DNA of 62,885 bases, the filler included, from Stramenopiles sp. TOSAG23-2 (lineage: Eukaryota): NCBI GenBank assembly GCA_900128395.1. It is 45 parts of 45 records of this genome, joined end to end, with 100 filler letters (N's around TTAATTAATTAA, not from the genome) between each part and the next. Parts side by side here need not be neighbours in the genome. Positions count along the whole stretch, not along the records: positions 5,635 to 6,941 come from LT653210.1; positions 7,042 to 8,348 come from LT653211.1; positions 8,449 to 9,754 come from LT653212.1; positions 9,855 to 11,160 come from LT653213.1; positions 11,261 to 12,566 come from LT653214.1; positions 12,667 to 13,972 come from LT653215.1; 39 more parts are not named here. One strand, given 5' to 3'. Positions 4,743 through 15,376 of this stretch are shown piece by piece. Under the pieces are notes generated by a model. It was not told the origin of the DNA. It saw only the letters and a list, made by a program, of their open reading frames with translations, and did not search any database. The position numbers were made by a program, and so were the translations under genes. Each line of letters starts with the position of its first letter. The stretch's first letter is position 1.

Positions 4743-5510
4743 TCAATCCTCCTCCATTAAATTTCTACATGTATTGACTAAATTTTTATATTCTTCTAAT
4801 AATTCACCAACATCTACCACTTTCAATTCATTCACATTTAAATGTGCAAATCGAAAACGTTTTGCTTTCCATTCAATAATATCTTTCGCATCTATTTTGC
4901 TTTTATTACCTTTAGCTATTAATTTTGGTTGCAATTTATCAGTTAATTTTTTATTATTTGTTATTATTTTTTCATTTTGTTGCATGAAGTTATTCATTAA
5001 ATTTTGTTCATCCATTAATGCACTTTTATTTTTTCTAGATTCAGCATATAATAAATTTAAATCCATCCCTTTTTTCTTATCCTTATCAGATGATGATGAG
5101 GATAGCAATTCATTATTCATTTCCGCAAAATCAAATGACGTGGAATGTTTTCGTTTTGCTACTTCCATTTCACGTTTTGCAGCATTCATCCCACTTTCAA
5201 ATTCATCTTCTGTAATTGTCAATGAATCATGTTGTACATTTTCAATAAATGTCACTGCAGAATATAAATTTGTATACCAATATCCAGGTTCAGATAACAT
5301 TTTATCTGGATTACGAAAACAATCAATGTATTCTAAATTGGATTTCAAATTCGATGGATTTGCTTTTAAGACTACATATATCAATGCCGGTAAGAATTCA
5401 TCAGCACCTGGTAATTTTTCATCCGCATTCGTTCTAGCATCACTTAATAATTGACTAATAACTTTACAACAATTTAATAAGCAAACCATTTTATCACGTG
5501 GTGCTTTGTA
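4743..5510 (-). CDS. VPS9: VPS9-domain Rab5 guanine exchange factor; 5' partial
   Basis: KAPRDKMVCLLNCCKVI, GADEFLPALIYVVLKANP, GYWYTNLYSAVTFI, and C-terminal ELKVVDVGELLEEYK. Confidence 0.9.
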   Translation of the reverse strand, partial: YKAPRDKMVCLLNCCKVISQLLSDARTNADEKLPGADEFLPALIYVVLKANPSNLKSNLEYIDCFRNPDKMLSEPGYWYTNLYSAVTFIENVQHDSLTITEDEFESGMNAAKREMEVAKRKHSTSFDFAEMNNELLSSSSSDKDKKKGMDLNLLYAESRKNKSALMDEQNLMNNFMQQNEKIITNNKKLTDKLQPKLIAKGNKSKIDAKDIIEWKAKRFRFAHLNVNELKVVDVGELLEEYKNLVNTCRNLMEED

Positions 5511-5636
5511 TATAATGGGAAAGTGTAGATATTGNNNNNNNNNNNNNNNNNNNNNNNNNNNNNNNNNNNNNNNNNNNNTTAATTAATTAANNNNNNNNNN
5601 NNNNNNNNNNNNNNNNNNNNNNNNNNNNNNNNNNAA

Positions 5637-6941
5637 ACGACATTATTATGTGGTCCACGTGAATTTGGTTTACCAACCAATGAAGCAATACGTTTATGTG
5701 AATTATTTTATCCATATGAACATATGTTATCAACATATTATGATGAAGTGAATGCACTATTGGAATTCTTGCAACGTAGAAGAAGAAGACGTAGAAGAAG
5801 ATTGTTCGGAGTATGGCCAAGTATTCGAGATGGTTTTACAAATTTAATAAATAGTGCAAGTGGGGTTGTATTTGGTAAAGATGAGGATGATAATCATGAA
5901 AACGATGAAAGTGTTGATAACGATGATGGTCATGTCGATAATAGTGGTATGCGAAAGTTGGAGGATGAAGTTAAGATGTTAGCAGCAGAAGTTAAGCAAT
6001 CGCGTAATGAAGCTAAGCAATCGCGTAATAAAATAGCAATGTTAACAGAAGAAGCTAAGCAATCACGTAATGAAATAAAGCAATCGCGTAATAAAGATGA
6101 GGATGATAATCATGAAAACGATGAAAGTGTTGATCTCGATGATGGTCATGTCGATAATAGTGGTATGCGAAAGTTGGAGGATGAAGTTAAGATGTTAGCA
6201 GCAGAAGTTAAGCAATCGCGTAATGAAGCTAAGCAATCGCGTAATAAAATAGCAATGTTAACGAATGAAGCTAAACAGTCACGCAATGAAGCTAAGCAAT
6301 CGCGTAATAAAATAGCAATGTTAACAGAAGAAGCTAAGCAATCACGTAATGAAATAAAGCAATCGCGTAATGAAATAAAGCAATCACGTAATCAAATAAA
6401 ACGTTTAGAAAAGAAAGATACCATTGTACAAAACAACACTGCCGAAATCAACACCCTCAAACAAACAACCAATAAAACCAACCATTTCCTTGCCATTTTA
6501 AAACAAAATAATAAACAAAAACAACGTCGATTAGGTGATGGAAAATAGCAATGTTAACAGAAGAAGCTAAGCAATCGCGTAATGAAATAAAGCAATCGCG
6601 TAATGAAATAAAGCAATCGCGTAATGAAATAAAGCAATCACGTAATCAAATAAAACGTTTAGAAAAGAAAGATACCATTGTACAAAACAACACTGCCGAA
6701 ATCAACACCCTCAAACAAACAACCAATAAAACCAACCATTTCCTTGCCATTTTAAAACAAAATAATAAACAAAAACAACGTCGATTAGGTGATGGAGGTT
6801 CCCCATTAACGGATGAACTATGCCCAGTAGTGACAATGAAAGATGTAGAAGAATATCAAAAAGACTTGGATCTGTTTTGTACTGGATATGCTCATATTGA
6901 TTTAAATCCTCGAGATACAGTTATTAATTTAGCTGTTATGA
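5637..6941 (+). CDS. Unnamed RRL-family protein with 7-aa-repeat coiled coil; partial at both ends; frame broken near 6545 by an internal duplication
   Basis: Open from the contig start (LLCGPREF...RLCELFYPYEH); RRRRRRRRRLFG; 21-nt repeat encoding (E)(A/I)KQSRN; QRRLGDG; DELCP...FCTGYAHIDL. Confidence 0.7.
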
Positions 6942-7043
6942 NNNNNNNNNNNNNNNNNNNNNNNNNNNNNNNNNNNNNNNNNNNNTTAATTAATTAANNN
7001 NNNNNNNNNNNNNNNNNNNNNNNNNNNNNNNNNNNNNNNNNTC

Positions 7044-7130
7044 TGGTATACTCGCAAGCAACTGATTCGACTTGCCAATACCCAATTTCGACGTAACACT
7101 CAATACAAGATCTATATTCCCCCTTACTGA
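7044..7130 (+). CDS. 3' end of hypothetical protein (virus-like contig)
   Basis: Open frame WYTRKQLIRLANTQFRRNTQYKIYIPPY* from the contig edge. Confidence 0.35.
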   Translation, partial: WYTRKQLIRLANTQFRRNTQYKIYIPPY

Positions 7131-7205
7131 TTCCATTAGTCTTGATGCCTACAAGTATATTCTAAAATCAATTTATTTAAACATTAACAAAGTACTATAG
7201 TAAAG

Positions 7206-7577
7206 ATGCGCTTCAAGGATCGACTAGTATTTTTTTGGAATCTTACAATGGAATACATATACACTCTCTTTAAACCAATCGTACGTATCGAAGAACAAGT
7301 AACGTTACATAAATCATCCGATTACTCGATTATTGGTGTAACCAAAAATAATGAAACAATCAAGATTATCCGACGTGTGTCCACAGACCCCGATGTACTT
7401 TGTATATACGATAATGATCACAAACAAGATCTTACACTAAAATTCAAACAATTCATTCACTATTATAACCCAAACACACACACTTTTCAACACCTAGACA
7501 TTATTAAACATTATTATAATACAAGTAGTAATATAACCCTGATCTATGAAGATCTTACTGAACACAAATTACATTGA
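7206..7577 (+). CDS. Hypothetical protein (virus-like contig)
   Basis: 123-aa ATG ORF, tightly packed with its neighbours. Confidence 0.6.
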   Translation: MRFKDRLVFFWNLTMEYIYTLFKPIVRIEEQVTLHKSSDYSIIGVTKNNETIKIIRRVSTDPDVLCIYDNDHKQDLTLKFKQFIHYYNPNTHTFQHLDIIKHYYNTSSNITLIYEDLTEHKLH

Positions 7578-7962
7578 TCTACTATTTTATGATTTCATTA
7601 CCACAAATCTCAATTGTGATCCCACACACAATAGATTCTCACACAACACACCAAACAATGACCGGTACAAGTTTTTTTCAAATCAACAAAAATTATACGC
7701 AGTATATGATGAATTACTCGTACATTTACCATTCATTGACGAACCATCAATGTCACCATCACCACCACTCGTAACAAAACTAGAACTAGGTCTATCCAAA
7801 GAAATTGTTTTGAATCTTCCATTCATGCAACAATCACATATTGTCAAGTGTTTTTTAGATAACCACGGTCATCTGATTGTACAAATGGATTCCAAACCAA
7901 ATTTTATCGTTTTTTATATTGATACCTTACAGAATGTCTTTTGCAATCTTTACAGAGAATGA
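7546..7962 (+). CDS. Hypothetical protein (virus-like contig)
   Basis: 138-aa ATG ORF overlapping both neighbours by about 30 nt. Confidence 0.55.
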   Translation: MKILLNTNYIDLLFYDFITTNLNCDPTHNRFSHNTPNNDRYKFFSNQQKLYAVYDELLVHLPFIDEPSMSPSPPLVTKLELGLSKEIVLNLPFMQQSHIVKCFLDNHGHLIVQMDSKPNFIVFYIDTLQNVFCNLYRE

Positions 7963-8348
7963 AGGGACTGTTTTAGAAGGTAACGTATCAATTCAACCAT
8001 CACAAGATATTGCAGGTCAAAACGCATCATTAGAAGTTCTTGGTAATATTTATACAAACAACCTCACAGAATATAATCCAGGTTTCGGTTTACACATCTT
8101 TAATACGCAAAATGTTACCGGAGATACCAGCGCTGCCGTAGTTTTTTATGGGGGATCTAGATTTCAAAAAGAATTGTCCATTAAAACATTTCTAGATATC
8201 GAAGGAACTATTACACCACCCAACCCAAGTAATAAATATCTTCGATTATTCTTCAACACAACGGGAAATACACTTCAAACACTCGATTCATCTGGTAAGC
8301 TAAATATATTAAATCCGCTTACTAGTAAAGGTGACTTGCTAACACATT
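7934..8348 (+). CDS. Putative viral structural/fibre-like protein; 3' partial
   Basis: Rich in Gly/Asn/Thr beta-type sequence; TSAAVVFYGG and PLTSKGDLLTH resemble motifs of viral fibre proteins; ATG at 7934. Confidence 0.5.
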
Positions 8349-8448
8349 NNNNNNNNNNNNNNNNNNNNNNNNNNNNNNNNNNNNNNNNNNNNTTAATTAA
8401 TTAANNNNNNNNNNNNNNNNNNNNNNNNNNNNNNNNNNNNNNNNNNNN

Positions 8449-9600
8449 TACTGCATCCAATCCAGTACGTTCCTTGCCACTTTTAACAACTACTTCCCAT
8501 TCATCATCTTTCCCTTCCCGTCGCTTTGCATCAATTGCTAATACGGTACATTGTCTGCCAACAACATCAGATAATTCGGTTAAAAATGCAGGTCGTCGCA
8601 CAGCAGCTGTATTAATGGAAACTTTATCTGCACCAGCATTTAATAGTTTCTTCGCTGCATCTACATCTCGTATTCCCCCACCAACGGTTAATGGAAAAAT
8701 AGTTTTCGAATTAATATCACGTACCGTTTGTATTGCAGTTGCACGACCATCTGGTGTAGCAGATATATCTAACATAACTAGCTCATCTGCACCTTGCCGT
8801 TCATATTCCACAGCAAGTTCAACAGGATCTCCAGCATCCCTTAAACCTTGAAAAGATACACCTTTCACCACTCGTCCATTTTTTACATCTAAGCATGGTA
8901 TAATACGTCTTGTTAAATTCGATTTGACTGCTATACTGCTGTTTGCATTGTTTGTATTTGGAGTCGAAGAATCAACTGATTTTGTAATCCATTTTTGTAA
9001 AATACTTTGACCAACTTCACCACTTAATTCAGGATGAAATTGACAAGCTAATATATTCCCTTTTTCCAATGCAGATACAAATTCTATACCATGCAACGTC
9101 GTCGCTACTTTCCATCCCCCTAATGGTATGGAAGTCAACGCATAACTATTAGAAAAATATACATGCCCATCTTTTAAATACTTATATTGTATCCGTTTTC
9201 CTGCTTCGCGTTGTATTTTATTCCATCCTTGCTGCGGTACTAATATTTCACCATTTGGATTTGGTATTCTTTGTATTTTACAACCTTTTAATATATCTAA
9301 TCCCGTACAATTTTCACTTTCCTCTGAGCTACCAGCAAGTATTTGCAATCCGACACATACAAACATGGTTGATAAATTATTGTCAACCCGTGTTTTCAAT
9401 ACATTCACTAAATCATTTTCTCGTAAATTATCCATAGCACTGCCGAACGTCGCAACGCCAGGTACTACCACACACGTTGCATTCTCAACGTCTATTTTAT
9501 TTTTTGTAATTTTTGGTATACACGTTGGACATGCTTTTTTCAATGCAGCAACCATCGATGCATTATTTGATGTACCAGTATCAATAATATATATTTCCAT
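8449..9600 (-). CDS. hisHF: Bifunctional imidazole glycerol phosphate synthase, HisH-HisF fusion; 3' partial
   Basis: His[27 protein letters not shown]. His[58 protein letters not shown]. Confidence 0.95.
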
Positions 9601-10184
9601 TGTATTATTAATTTTTTTTGTTTATAAATATATATATATAATATGAATCAGATATATATATATATATATATAAATGAAAATATATATCTTACTTGTATTG
9701 TTTTATCTATATATATTGCTGTTGTTTTATTATACTATTTATAATTATTTTGTTNNNNNNNNNNNNNNNNNNNNNNNNNNNNNNNNNNNNNNNNNNNNTT
9801 AATTAATTAANNNNNNNNNNNNNNNNNNNNNNNNNNNNNNNNNNNNNNNNNNNNCGTGAATCACTTCGTACTTATGGCTATACTAAATACCTGTAATATA
9901 TCTATCAAACATTTACAATGGTATGTCTATCTTGTATGCTATATCCATTGTATATATAGCAGCTGAATACGATGGACCAGGTTTTTGCACCCCTATAGGA
10001 AGATCTTTTTAAGGAAATGGCCAATAATAATATATATTATGCACCATATATAGTAAATAGATCCAACGATCCAACCAGAATATATATATATCCGGATATA
10101 TATATTCATACTAGTTATTAACACAACTTTCTACGTTATTTTTAGTGAAAGGTTGTAGAACAAATTACATACATATATGACACC

Positions 10185-11160
10185 ATGTCCTCTACATCAT
10201 CGGATACTTTCATTTCGTATTTATTAAATATATTGAAAACGCTAAATATTAAAACATTACAAATACAACATGTGAAAAACAAGCAACAGCAGCAAAATTC
10301 GAATCTTTCTTCGGATATCAATACGATTTGGAACGATGTATTTTACAATAAAGCAATGGTAAATCAAATATTTAAATATTTAATAGATGATGATAGCGGG
10401 ATGATGGATGAAAATGGTGGATTGGAGCATGGTGATGGAAATCATTTTGATGATAGTAACAATACTTTAAATAATAATTTAATCACTTCACAAGTTGAAA
10501 GACGTATTATTAAAATCATTATATATGATATTATTAAATTTTGTCCAACAACCGATATTAATAAATGGGATATTATATTACAATCAAGTAAGTTTGGTCA
10601 ATATATATATAATACAACCTGCAATAGATAGATATATATAGATATAGAAACTAACAATATTATTATCCCACCATATATATATGCACATCAGTTAAAATTG
10701 ATTTATCACGTGCTGATCATACGGATCATACAATTGCAGCCTTATCCGTATTAAATACATTACCATCCAATTTATTATTAAATTTCATCACAACAACTGA
10801 TATTGAAGGGCAATTATTATCCTGTTTAGAACATGATTCATGTTTTGCCATACAAATTGCAACAATTGATAATTTAGTAGATTTATTTTTACGTGCATGT
10901 TATAAATTAGAAAATAGTAATAAAAATACTAGTAATAATCCATTGAAAATTAAGGCACATGAATCTATCATGCATGAAAGAAGGTAGGTGTGAATATATA
11001 TATATATATACATACATTCAATAACAAAACAAAACTAACAATCTCTCTTTCTCTCTCTTCCAACAACAACAACAACAACAACAAACTAAATAAAAAACAC
11101 ACAACAGAATCAAACAAGCAACATTAGATCGAGCATTATTAATATACAAACGTATAGCAA
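10185..11160 (+). CDS. TPLATE: TPLATE-like (TSET complex beta-adaptin-type subunit) N-terminus; exons 10185-10587, 10692-10983, 11108-11160; 3' partial
   Basis: Introns GTAAGT...ACTAAC...CAG (10588-10691) and GTAGGT...ACTAAC...CAG (10984-11107) both splice in frame, giving KIIIYDIIKFC..WDIILQSIKIDLSRADHTDHTIAALSVLNTLP...LLSCLEH...TLDRALLIYKRIA. Confidence 0.6.
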
Positions 11161-11569
11161 NNNNNNNNNNNNNNNNNNNNNNNNNNNNNNNNNNNNNNNN
11201 NNNNTTAATTAATTAANNNNNNNNNNNNNNNNNNNNNNNNNNNNNNNNNNNNNNNNNNNNCTGTTATTTCTATCGTTGTTATGCACTTATTAATATTTTA
11301 AAATAAATCATTTTGTTGGGGCATTCCAACTTTCCTGGCTTTGGCATTTTTCAGCATCATTATCATTGCCAGGATTGCCAAAAAAAAAAGACTGTGGACA
11401 ATATTACTTACACTACTATGTACTAGTTTCCTTAATTAACCCCCACACCAGCTCACTACCTCGTACAGTACGAGAAATACAATAACACACGCACAGCACA
11501 GTACCTGGTAATAAGGTCACAACCGTTATTTTTTATAGATTTAAGATTTATAAAAACTATATACATGTG

Positions 11570-11807
11570 TAGTATCACAAATTATATACATACAAACAAT
11601 ATTAATCAGCGGTGGAAAATAAAAGAAATCAATTTATCTTTAATAATAGCATATTATTATGAAAATAATTGATCTACCAAACGATCTATAGTATCACAAA
11701 TTATATACATACAAACAATATTAATCAGCGGTGGAAAATAAAAGAAATCAATTTATCTTTAATAATAGCATATTATTATGAAAATAATTGATCTACCAAA
11801 CGATCTA
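11570..11807 (+). repeat. Tandem duplication, 2 x 119 bp, spanning the 5' flank and start codon
   Basis: 11570-11688 is identical to 11689-11807. Confidence 0.9.
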
Positions 11808-12530
11808 TTGAATGTTATATTGACCTATTTATTTGAGGATGCTTTTGCAAATGAAGAGCGCAACGCTTTATTAATGCAACAACAGAAGAAGATTCAAGTT
11901 AATGTTCCAAATAATACCTACGTTCGTGAAATGTATTCTTTATATTATATGAATCGTAAAATGGCATTTTACCTTTCTGAGACAAAGATAGGTACTTGTT
12001 TCTTTCGGCATATAACTCCTCCGTTTTTGACAAAACGGGTAGTAAAAAAGAAGAAGAAAATATTTAACTTTTTTAAAAAAAGGTTATTGAGTCACTATAA
12101 CAATAATAGTAATAACTCTAGTGATATGAAAAAAAATGGAATGAAGAAATTTCTATGTACAATTGAACAGAATGATATAGGAATTAAAAGAACAACCCCA
12201 CTTTTTATTCACTTCTTAGTCAAGGCTGCTGATGAAGAGGATAAAGAAAATATTTCAAAAAAAAATTGTATAGAATATGAATTCGACGGATTCAACCACA
12301 GGCTAATTGGTGTTGAGTCTATATTTACTTCAATTAAAACAGGCGAAAAAATAAACATTCCTGCTAAATACTTTTCTGAATGTAGCACAATAAATTTTGA
12401 GCCTACGAAAACCAGAAACAATTTAGCAATAAGTGTTACAATCGATACTCCAGATTTTGAAAGTTTGGATTTACGATTCCGATTACGTGTTCCTTCAAAT
12501 ACATATCAAATGCAAGCATGGGGTTTGTAG
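11778..12530 (+). CDS. F-box-like hypothetical protein
   Basis: N-terminus MKIIDLPNDLLNVILTYL is F-box-like; complete 250-aa ORF. Confidence 0.6.
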   Translation: MKIIDLPNDLLNVILTYLFEDAFANEERNALLMQQQKKIQVNVPNNTYVREMYSLYYMNRKMAFYLSETKIGTCFFRHITPPFLTKRVVKKKKKIFNFFKKRLLSHYNNNSNNSSDMKKNGMKKFLCTIEQNDIGIKRTTPLFIHFLVKAADEEDKENISKKNCIEYEFDGFNHRLIGVESIFTSIKTGEKINIPAKYFSECSTINFEPTKTRNNLAISVTIDTPDFESLDLRFRLRVPSNTYQMQAWGL

Positions 12531-12945
12531 TATCATATAAAGCATATATATCATATAAATATATATNNNNNNNNNNNNNNNNNNNNNNNNNNNNNNNNNN
12601 NNNNNNNNNNTTAATTAATTAANNNNNNNNNNNNNNNNNNNNNNNNNNNNNNNNNNNNNNNNNNNNATGTATTTATTAATAAAGATATATACACTCGTAT
12701 ATCTATATGTACTTTTATATTTGATATATATATTCTTTAATTCATATATATATATATATATCATATAATTTAAATATTTAATAAATATTATCAATATTTA
12801 AATTACAGTTTGACTTTTAAATTATACATTATACACTTTATCATATTTTCAGCGCAACTATCATAAAAAAAAGTTACAATTAGCATGTATTAAATTGGTT
12901 AAGACCGTTTCGATTGCCATGACATGTATGCCTACGTTTTCAAAT

Positions 12946-13971
12946 TTAACATCCTCGTTGTCTAGCGGCCCCTAACAACCGCCTCCTCCTACTCACATGC
13001 GAATTCTCCACTTTATATAGCGTTCCCGTCAACACCACGTCTTTGGAATAATGTTTGTGGCGTTTGTATTTCAATTTTACCATTTTTTTGTCACAGCTAT
13101 TTTCGCACTCCAAGGACATTTGCGAATTCGTTTCATACTGGCATTCCTTGATGCATCTGCTTTTGCATTCATCCGTCAACACCACGTCTTTGGAATAATG
13201 TTTGTGGCGTTTGTCTTTCAATTTCTTTAACTTCTTTGCGCACAAATCTTCACATTCTTTGTAGCCTTTAACATGTTTACAGCAATTTGAATCGTCGACA
13301 TATGCTTTGACTTGAACTTTCGCACCAATTAAGTATTTCCTATCTTCACAAAACGGCAACTCACTTTGTAAATATCCATTTTTATCTTGTGTGTTCAGAT
13401 TCACCACGGCAACCCAATCTTTCTCTTCTCCCAACACATCCATCGCGATATGTTGAATGGAAATGTCGTTTGCGGTAAACAATGGCGCAGCTGGGCATGA
13501 TGTATCATCAATCTCGTAACGTAATGATTGTTTTAAACTAAACATTTTTTTGTCATCATAAGCAATATCATTTTTTAAATAATGAATTGCAATGTTCTTA
13601 ATTTCTGCACTAGATAACTCTAAATGATTGTAACCAGCACAATGTGATTGTTTCAATTCACTTAATTCACCCGGGCCGTAGGTATGACCAACATGTTTAC
13701 ACATTTCTTCTGCTTTTGGTTTAGATTGTCCTGTTTTTGTTTTTATCACTTGTTGCATATTGTTATTAATTTTACCTAAACGTTTTTTTGAATTTAATTG
13801 ACGTTTACGTAATGAACTTTCCATGGATTCTAGGAAAGATGATGATTGTTGTACGTCTATTGGTTTAAAATATAAGTGTTCAATTAAATTATAAAAGTTC
13901 TTCATAGCATGATGATACGGCACAAACAATTCACACAATTTCCTTTCACTGTTTCCAGGGGCATCTACAAT
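12946..13971 (-). CDS. Unnamed RRL-family Cys-containing protein ending RRRRLLGAARQRGC; 5' partial
   Basis: Open from the contig edge (RKLCELFVPYHH); EEMC...HCAGYNHLEL; internal repeat KRHKHYSKDVVLT x2; C-terminal RRRRLL motif. Confidence 0.75.
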   Translation of the reverse strand: MVDAPGNSERKLCELFVPYHHAMKNFYNLIEHLYFKPIDVQQSSSFLESMESSLRKRQLNSKKRLGKINNNMQQVIKTKTGQSKPKAEEMCKHVGHTYGPGELSELKQSHCAGYNHLELSSAEIKNIAIHYLKNDIAYDDKKMFSLKQSLRYEIDDTSCPAAPLFTANDISIQHIAMDVLGEEKDWVAVVNLNTQDKNGYLQSELPFCEDRKYLIGAKVQVKAYVDDSNCCKHVKGYKECEDLCAKKLKKLKDKRHKHYSKDVVLTDECKSRCIKECQYETNSQMSLECENSCDKKMVKLKYKRHKHYSKDVVLTGTLYKVENSHVSRRRRLLGAARQRGC

Positions 13972-14242: not shown

Positions 14243-14702
14243 ATTGTAAAATGCAGATGGTAGAAATGTAGGAGTAACGCAAAAATTAAATGATGTCATT
14301 GATGCATTAAATGAAAAACAAACGAATAGTAAATTGAAAGATGTTGTTCAAGACGAACAACTAAATGGAAAAGAGGAAGAGGAAACACATAAAAAATGAG
14401 AAAACAATTAACACTCTGTGTGGAGTGTGAATGTGAAAATATAAAAAATATTTTATAAAACATGGAATACTGAATGAAACATACGCATACAACACCTGGA
14501 ACTCTCTAAAGCGTAAATATTATTTGATCTCCTATAGTCACATCATCTCTCTCATTTTTTATGTTTCCACGCGTTTCCCCTCTCTCTATCGTTCTTTCAT
14601 TTCAATGCGGGGGTTGTTTTATGTCAATTGAATTCCATTTGAACTAACAACAAATAGAAATAATAGAAATAATATTGAAATAATGTTGAAGTATACATAA
14701 CA

Positions 14703-14738
<36 letters not shown>

Positions 14739-14742
14739 CAAC

Positions 14743-15376
14743 ATGGCATCCATCACAGAAAAAGAAGATAAAGTGGACGACGGTGAGGATGAAATTAAAA
14801 ACATATACGATATATGTGGTATACCAGGTTTGTTTAAACATATTTTAATATTTTTAAAAGTTAAATCTATATTAAAATTGAAAGAGTCTTGTTTAGTGAA
14901 AAATTTAAATCATACAAGTTTTAATGAGTGTGTAACTGCAGCAATACGTGGACCAAAACAGTTGTTTGAGTTATATCGAAGATATAGATTGGAATTTGAA
15001 GGGAAGTCGACATTGGTATGTGCATGTGAAAAAGGACGTATGAATGATGTGATGTTATTTGTGAATTTACATCGTTTTCATAAATATATTGAGATGAAAG
15101 GTGTGAAAGAAGGTAATATGACATTGAAAGAATACGTGAATCAAGTAGGTACAGATAGTTATGGTTTTGATGGATGGACACCTTTAATGGCAGCTGCAGT
15201 GAACGAACATTTCCAAATAGTTAAATATTTGATTGAACAATGTGAAGCTGATCCTAATATTGCAAAGAGTAGTACTGGAGTGAATGCATTACATTTAGCA
15301 GCATATAACGAAAAGGATACAAAGTTGATTGAGTTGTTATTAACTAATATGTCTCTTACTAGCATTAATAAGAAGT
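14743..15376 (+). CDS. F-box-like plus ankyrin-repeat protein; 3' partial
   Basis: IPGLFKHILIFL; GWTPLMAAAVNEHFQIVKYLIEQCEADPNI; GVNALHLAA. Confidence 0.85.

Follow-up and report, generated by a model that had tools for sequence, protein, structure and literature searches.

A cysteine-rich, modular protein family with interchangeable maturation-type motifs in a stramenopile genome assigned to MAST-4

Secreted proteins with Arg-X-Leu-like motifs are known in stramenopiles from the silaffin/frustulin-type RXL proproteins of diatoms. In ciliates, the matrix proteins of trichocysts or mucocysts are cut proproteins that are packed in a granule and expand on discharge, and in class I fusion proteins and lytic-peptide precursors cleavage exposes a membrane-active N-terminus. 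The secreted collectins, ficolins and C1q carry Gly-X-Y collagen runs, which form triple helices, and then a short coiled coil and a globular domain at the C-terminus, and proteins with a ZP module combine a signal peptide and variable N-terminal domains with a two-part module, a linker, and a basic site ahead of a C-terminal propeptide. For Toxoplasma, the passages of two reports used here describe that the protease ASP5 cuts its substrates at RRL near the N- or the C-terminus (PMC4764566) and that ASP3 cuts SFVE and SFTE at SphiXE sites (PMC5595437). Here we describe a protein family found in a stretch of 62,885 nucleotides (nt) from the genome assembly GCA_900128395.1 of Stramenopiles sp. 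TOSAG23-2. This stretch, the window, is a string of ∼1.3-kb contigs with spacers between them, and two of these contigs carry members of the family: contig A (5635-6941, + strand), which belongs to subfamily B, and contig B (12667-13972, - strand), which belongs to subfamily A.

An earlier note on this DNA had proposed that the proteins of contigs A and B are paralogs that share two short Cys-containing blocks. In a direct pairwise comparison block 1 aligned with E=4e-6 (12 of 29 residues identical) and block 2 only weakly (E=0.023), so that the direct support was modest. The homology is nevertheless firm because full-length members bridge the two contigs: P0003 matched both L153 (E=6e-19) and L068 (E=9e-18), and P0001 and P0002 were 78% identical to L153. 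The paralogy proved to be real and the family much larger than had been reported. What had been noted as two blocks were just the inner ends of two larger conserved domains, with ∼220 and ∼190 residues. Searches of the genome itself gave 84, 14, 47, 79 and 87 matches, which a hand count placed on 75 different contigs, and block 1 alone was found in 45 places; judged from these sequences, the gene number in this genome is perhaps 45-75. In a library of 1.84 billion representatives, a profile of the core retrieved 285 clusters at E<=0.001, and 54 family loci (55 of 133 candidate stretches) were present on metagenome contigs of other assemblies, many per assembly. In a tree of 137 cores, 95 members (subfamily A) formed one large radiation and 16 (subfamily B) a tight clade, alongside several deeper clades. 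In three cases, L069 (G000:C1838), L061 (G000:C4799) and L118, two family members lay on one contig; the other members found were mostly single and amid unrelated genes.

The site of the MAST-4 probe NS4 occurred in the 18S of the genome with 0 mismatches, and the MAST-7 probe site had no match there at up to 3 mismatches (both probe sequences as given in Table 1 of PMC9303649). The host is treated here as a MAST-4 flagellate; the genes flanking the family members were ordinary eukaryotic genes. MAST-4 are uncultured flagellates and among the common marine bacterial grazers. The matches in other data went under 'hypothetical protein' or automatically assigned gene numbers, apart from two domain labels, likewise automatic, and one label that included 'MAST'. 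No name of a cultured organism was among the named matches listed, from databases searched without taxonomy, and the family is likely restricted to MAST-4 by this measure. Literature searches listed no description of the family, although the MAST genome papers may include it, unannotated, in their orthogroup tables.

Full-length members were single open frames of about 570 to 2128 aa with the following order of parts: a signal-peptide-like start, a variable arm, a coiled coil, the first conserved domain (N-core), an insert, the second conserved domain (C-core), and a terminal RRRRLL with a short tail. The N-termini, which the earlier note had given as missing, were scored with a hydrophobicity rule made for this analysis rather than with SignalP. 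Signal-peptide-like starts were found in 54 of 67 members closed at the 5' end (20/25 in the own genome and 34/42 elsewhere) versus 16 of 74 neighbouring open reading frames (ORFs), and several of the misses were broken frames or had the Met outside the scoring window. A membrane-spanning stretch after residue 100 was found in none of the 25 own-genome members. Four of the 42 members from elsewhere were flagged; two of these flags are attributed to late signal peptides, one to a low-complexity contig end and one to a broken frame.

The arms had a length of 88-912 residues and contained Cys repeats of the Ephrin_rec_like type (PF07699), RCC1 or Kelch propellers, alanine zippers or DUF4214 modules. 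An unnamed Cys module (T..EC..AA.YN ... PPGC ... Y.WN ... C ... C.CK), for which no Pfam match of its own was obtained, alternated with Ephrin_rec_like in numerous arms, among them those of L045, L047 and L049. In the predicted structure a 57-residue helix led into the N-core, which was itself helical at moderate confidence, and the C-core modelled alone was beta-rich and confidently predicted (scores in Table 1). Eight Cys were conserved in the N-core and eight in the C-core. The two halves had previously been suggested to be disulfide-linked; conserved Cys were indeed present in both, but no bond between the halves is required because each core holds an even number of them. In Pfam-A scans of 92 C-core and 78 N-core members no core gave a match above the curated cut-off, and the strong matches in these scans (Collagen, Ephrin_rec_like) came only from the flanks of longer rows. 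The family proteins of the window were likewise without a Pfam match above the cut-off. This bears out the description of an expanded, unnamed, Cys-rich stramenopile paralog family in which neither conserved domain matches Pfam.

The insert between the cores was as variable as had been claimed from the two contigs, with 32-922 residues and a length of 69 or shorter in 102 of 146 linkers. Nine of the 146 inserts contained Gly-X-Y collagen runs (PF01391). In the inserts of L066, L067, L069, P0014 and P0081 the collagen runs were interrupted by a repeated globular module of GDYV type, and a further unnamed module stood ahead of the runs in L069 and P0014. Except for Collagen, the modules of the collagen-bearing inserts had no Pfam match; they presumably resemble small carbohydrate-binding and crystallin-like modules. 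In some clades (L064-L067, L069, L070, L081, L140) the C-core was succeeded by a further unnamed domain of ∼130 residues, the extension domain. A terminal Arg run with Leu was present at 194 of 204 member ends and at 1 of 74 control ends. The tail that followed was 3-20 residues long (7 residues in 91/194), had no hydrophobic span and contained Cys in 140/194. Tails ended in GC in 71/194 and in RL in 43/194 (e.g., CRL, NRL, ERL).

Two types of candidate cleavage motif were found at the borders of the insert. At the insert start, 95 of the 146 linkers had an SFLE-type motif only and 28 an RRL-type motif only; both occurred together in 0 and neither in 23. The earlier view that the insert is bounded by R(R/K)L sites therefore fits subfamily B, including contig A, but not the family as a whole. 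The internal site of the extension domain behaved in the same manner, with 4 RRRRLL and about 10 S/phi-phi-E motifs (e.g., SLLEV-type) in 15 sequences. As sequence motifs, the RRL and SFLE types thus replace each other at two homologous sites. In counts set against shuffled linkers, SF[LIV][EQ] occurred in 83/146 linkers (maximum in shuffles 2) and R[LIV]G in 102/146 (maximum 14). Dibasic motifs with a following aliphatic residue were present in 59/146 (shuffles mean 29, maximum 41), and the furin consensus R-X-K/R-R in 23/146 (mean 9.7, maximum 17). Family-wide, the latter was not conserved at the insert borders; the terminal Arg runs and subfamily B do match it.

Arms and inserts were not strictly tied to the cores. 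Unrelated arms, without detectable similarity, were present in 8 of 82 pairs with cores >=80% identical, a count in which some database proteins could be chimeric. One collagen-containing insert occurred both in a member of subfamily A and in one from a deep clade, at 50% identity over 327 columns, and collagen inserts were spread over several clades of the core tree. These data suggest that arms and inserts have been recombined on a core that stays stable.

With a probability of roughly 0.55, we favor the explanation that the family consists of secreted, soluble proproteins, expanded in MAST-4, in which a two-domain scaffold displays exchangeable arms and inserts and which undergo processing of the aspartyl-protease type. 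The N-core and the C-core would each be closed by their own four likely disulfides and together form an assembly scaffold. This would probably be a trimer, because the collagen Gly-X-Y runs imply triple helices. The scaffold would display two cargoes. At the N-terminus, a coiled coil would bear the arm with its binding-type modules; in the centre would sit the insert, made of a coiled coil, of collagen with a small globular module, or of Cys modules. In the secretory pathway, RRL-type or SFLE-type sites would be cut at three places: behind the N-core, in front of the C-core and immediately ahead of the C-terminal tail. Aspartyl proteases like plasmepsin V / IX-X would be likelier enzymes than furin. 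Once cut, the insert would have a free end and the proteins could assemble into a surface coat or a fibre, which may serve in contacts with prey, particles or viruses. The genome contained 11 aspartyl-protease matches, one of which (L162:1228-3993, on G000:C1361) is a 922-aa protein that has a signal peptide, a pro-region rich in Arg and a C-terminal stretch of hydrophobic residues.

Several points weigh against this explanation. Secretion, cleavage, protease, trimer, location and role are all features that we infer, and the signal-peptide rule on which the first of them leans was positive in the 16 controls given above and missed 13 of the 67 members. Collagen was present in a minority of the inserts only, and the trimer is deduced from those. 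The motif counts were taken on related sequences, which are not independent events, and the scoring windows for the two insert-start motifs differed (32 and 22 residues). Many copies were fragments or near-identical (possible alleles or assembly bubbles), and the gene number is uncertain. No enrichment of RRL or SFLE motifs was found in 17 other signal-peptide-like ORFs compared with 110 without such a start; there is therefore as yet no sign of a general secretory signal in this organism. In the passages of PMC5595437 used here, the authors saw no obvious overall consensus among ASP3 sites. The best solved relative of L162 was plasmepsin V (E 1.7e-16), hardly ahead of chymosin (3.3e-16). Finally, subfamily-A inserts also carry LRKR and the genome holds 9 Peptidase_S8 (subtilase) matches, which leaves room for a basic-site protease. 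A bolder form of the explanation, in which an undescribed MAST-4-centred scaffold with at least one new fold provides dozens of secreted recognition fibres per cell, with shuffled arms and inserts and with RRL and SphiXE as interchangeable aspartyl-protease signals, is put forward tentatively and appears doubtful at present.

The members could alternatively be stored matrix proteins of a secretory granule or extrusome, i.e., proproteins that are cut into N-core and C-core subunits, packed, and expand on discharge. The large paralog family, the signal peptides, the cleavable tail, the lack of a membrane anchor and the two conserved halves with a basic or cleavable linker between them would all agree with this, and SphiXE marks proteins stored in rhoptries, according to the part of PMC5595437 used here. 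However, large, freely exchanged binding-type arms (88-912 residues) suit display better than a crystalline matrix, the Pfam scans of the cores gave no link to ciliate matrix proteins, and extrusomes in MAST-4 could not be established from a literature search. Storage in a granule is rather unlikely.

If a furin/kexin-like or other subtilisin convertase cut the motifs, as proposed in the earlier note, the remainder of the favored explanation would be unchanged. The poly-Arg runs fit R-X-K/R-R, the dibasic-aliphatic motifs exceeded their shuffles, and subtilases are encoded in the genome. Yet the furin consensus was confined to a small part of the linkers, the P_proprotein domain (PF01483) had 0 matches in this incomplete genome, and furin specificity leaves both the conserved Leu after the Arg run and the replacement by SFLE unexplained. 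We regard cutting by a convertase as improbable.

A component of flagellar hairs (mastigonemes) or of terminal filaments would suit a stramenopile host, and Chlamydomonas Mst1 was the only solved sequence that matched a 1605-aa member (E=1.4e-13). Mst1 and other Ephrin_rec_like repeat proteins share with the family the Cys-rich repeat of many arms; the match was confined to these arm repeats (residues 421-487), whereas the cores had none. Flagellar hair proteins would moreover be expected across flagellated stramenopiles, but the named matches were only environmental or from single-cell genomes, and a role of this kind is very unlikely.

In subfamily B, the 18 residues after the Arg run were uncharged and amphipathic (mean hydrophobic moment 0.38), with heptad repeats next to them; 11 of the 16 related segments were more amphipathic than 95% of their own shuffles (for the segment of contig A see Table 1). 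The short SFLE-type inserts had a mean hydrophobicity of -0.45. A membrane-active effector precursor, in which the Arg-run cut exposes the amphipathic N-terminus, with the heptad coiled coil behind it, and the variable arm targets prey membranes, would account for this segment but is hardly to be expected, since the segment occurs in one subfamily of 16 close relatives, is not present in 15 other RRL-type inserts or in short SFLE-type inserts, and is not accompanied by a transmembrane anchor.

Compared with the described systems, the favored reading of secreted and processed proproteins is close to the ASP5 (RRL/TEXEL) and ASP3 (SphiXE) substrates of Toxoplasma, which are dense-granule and rhoptry proproteins that likewise have a signal peptide and RRL and SF-X-E motifs in internal and near-terminal positions. 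The likeness is limited to the motifs and the signal-peptide-like start, known here from sequence; the family differs in that its host is a free-living stramenopile and the two motif types alternate at homologous sites in one family. The collagen-bearing members share with collectins, ficolins and C1q the succession of Gly-X-Y run, short coiled coil and C-terminal globular domain. In the family, however, collagen is optional and internal, between two cores, the variable modules are N-terminal, and the core scans gave no C-type lectin, fibrinogen or C1q Pfam match by sequence. The layout also agrees with that of ZP-module proteins, whereas the N-core is helical in the model, not Ig-like, and a transmembrane or GPI anchor behind the terminal site is lacking; no Zona_pellucida Pfam match was obtained and the ZP2 domain rows of a fold search were at noise level. 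Unlike silaffins and frustulins, the family has folded Cys-rich cores, no Ser/Lys-rich silaffin repeats and no frustulin match. The family appears to resemble known modular secreted proproteins in its working and is, by sequence, a member of none of them. As a lineage-expanded modular secreted family it is ordinary in kind; what is new is the core and the exchange of two maturation-type motifs.

With dozens of copies, exchangeable arms and a conserved core, the family offers expressible candidates for the recognition or holding of prey by MAST-4, and the core profile can be used to track it in RNA data from the ocean. Whether the maturation signals of Toxoplasma and Plasmodium work in free-living stramenopiles can be tested through the exchange of RRL and SFLE at homologous sites. 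If the bolder form of the explanation is true, both maturation codes, so far characterized in apicomplexan parasites, would be present together with a diversified system for contact with prey or viruses in a free-living ocean bacterivore. The confidently predicted C-core is a worthwhile target for structure determination.

The features of the two window contigs are listed in Table 1. The motifs quoted in the earlier note were all present at their places, but contig A is not the one ORF it had been taken for: it was read across an unmentioned frame break, and block 2 lies in another frame. Frame 1 starts at 5637 and ends at the TAG directly after the first RRLG; frame 2 (6539-6940) holds DELCP and FCTGYAHIDLN. 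A stretch of 207 nt at 6336-6542 is repeated with 100% identity at 6590-6796, and the frame is broken because the spacing of this tandem duplication, 254 nt, is not a multiple of 3. The junction 24-mer was private to contig A, being present in none of the other 167 loci (168 compared), and the continuing, undisrupted form was found in the sister contigs C8164 and C6542 and in L153. The first and last 70 nt of C8164 are the same as those of contig A, and it has both blocks in one frame. Judged from these comparisons, the break more probably arose as an artefact of assembly or amplification than from a gene that is truly broken.

Contig B holds a single open frame of 341 aa from 13971 to 12949 (-), which ends in RRRRLL and eight further residues. 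Within its C-core a repeat was found in frame at 147-nt spacing (13026-13110 and 13173-13257). The junction of this repeat was private as well, and the motif was doubled in 1 of 63 members scored.

Table 1. Positions of the family features on contigs A and B, counted along the window.
Contig	Feature	Position	Strand	Support
A	End of helical N-core, last 46 residues; block 1 LCELFYPY at 5694-5717	5637..5774	+	78% identical to full-length L153
A	Nine Arg then Leu; candidate cleavage site 1, RRL type	5775..5804	+	Motif counts
A	Amphipathic, Gly/Ala/Ser-rich segment without charged residues, immediately behind Arg run; typical in subfamily B	5805..5876	+	p=0.056
A	Insert: acidic spacer, 21-nt (7-residue) KQSRNE-type repeats, 216-nt internal duplication; predicted coiled coil	5877..6524	+	
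A	First RRLG copy, then frame break and TAG stop at 6546-6548	6525..6548	+	
A	Private frame-shifting tandem duplication, 254-nt spacing; artefact (assembly/amplification) or broken copy	6543..6796	+	
A	Second RRLG copy, in block 2 frame; candidate site 2	6779..6790	+	
A	C-core start (DELCP ... CTGYAHIDL ... VINLAVM), truncated at contig end	6812..6940	+	
B	N-core end; block 1 LCELFVPY at 13915-13938	13861..13971	-	82% identical to full-length P0004/L120
B	SFLE motif opening short insert; candidate cleavage site 1, SphiXE type; absent from earlier note	13828..13839	-	
B	LRKRQ ... KKRLG basic stretch in short insert; candidate site 2	13774..13812	-	
B	C-core, beta-rich, 8 conserved Cys	12991..13701	-	Model pLDDT 89, pTM 0.83
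B	Terminal RRRRLL (12973-12990), 8-residue tail ending GC, stop codon	12946..12990	-	

Other genes were recognized elsewhere in the window. The contig at 7042-8348 (+) had three short, closely packed ORFs with no Pfam match in a layout more compact than that of host genes, and gives the impression of possibly being viral or contaminant DNA. A fused glutamine amidotransferase and His_biosynth protein, an imidazole glycerol phosphate synthase of the HisH-HisF type, was encoded at 8449-9621 (-) and truncated by the contig end. Fragments of a VPS9-domain protein and of an ankyrin-repeat protein were located at 4746-5534 (-) and 14701-15375 (+), respectively.

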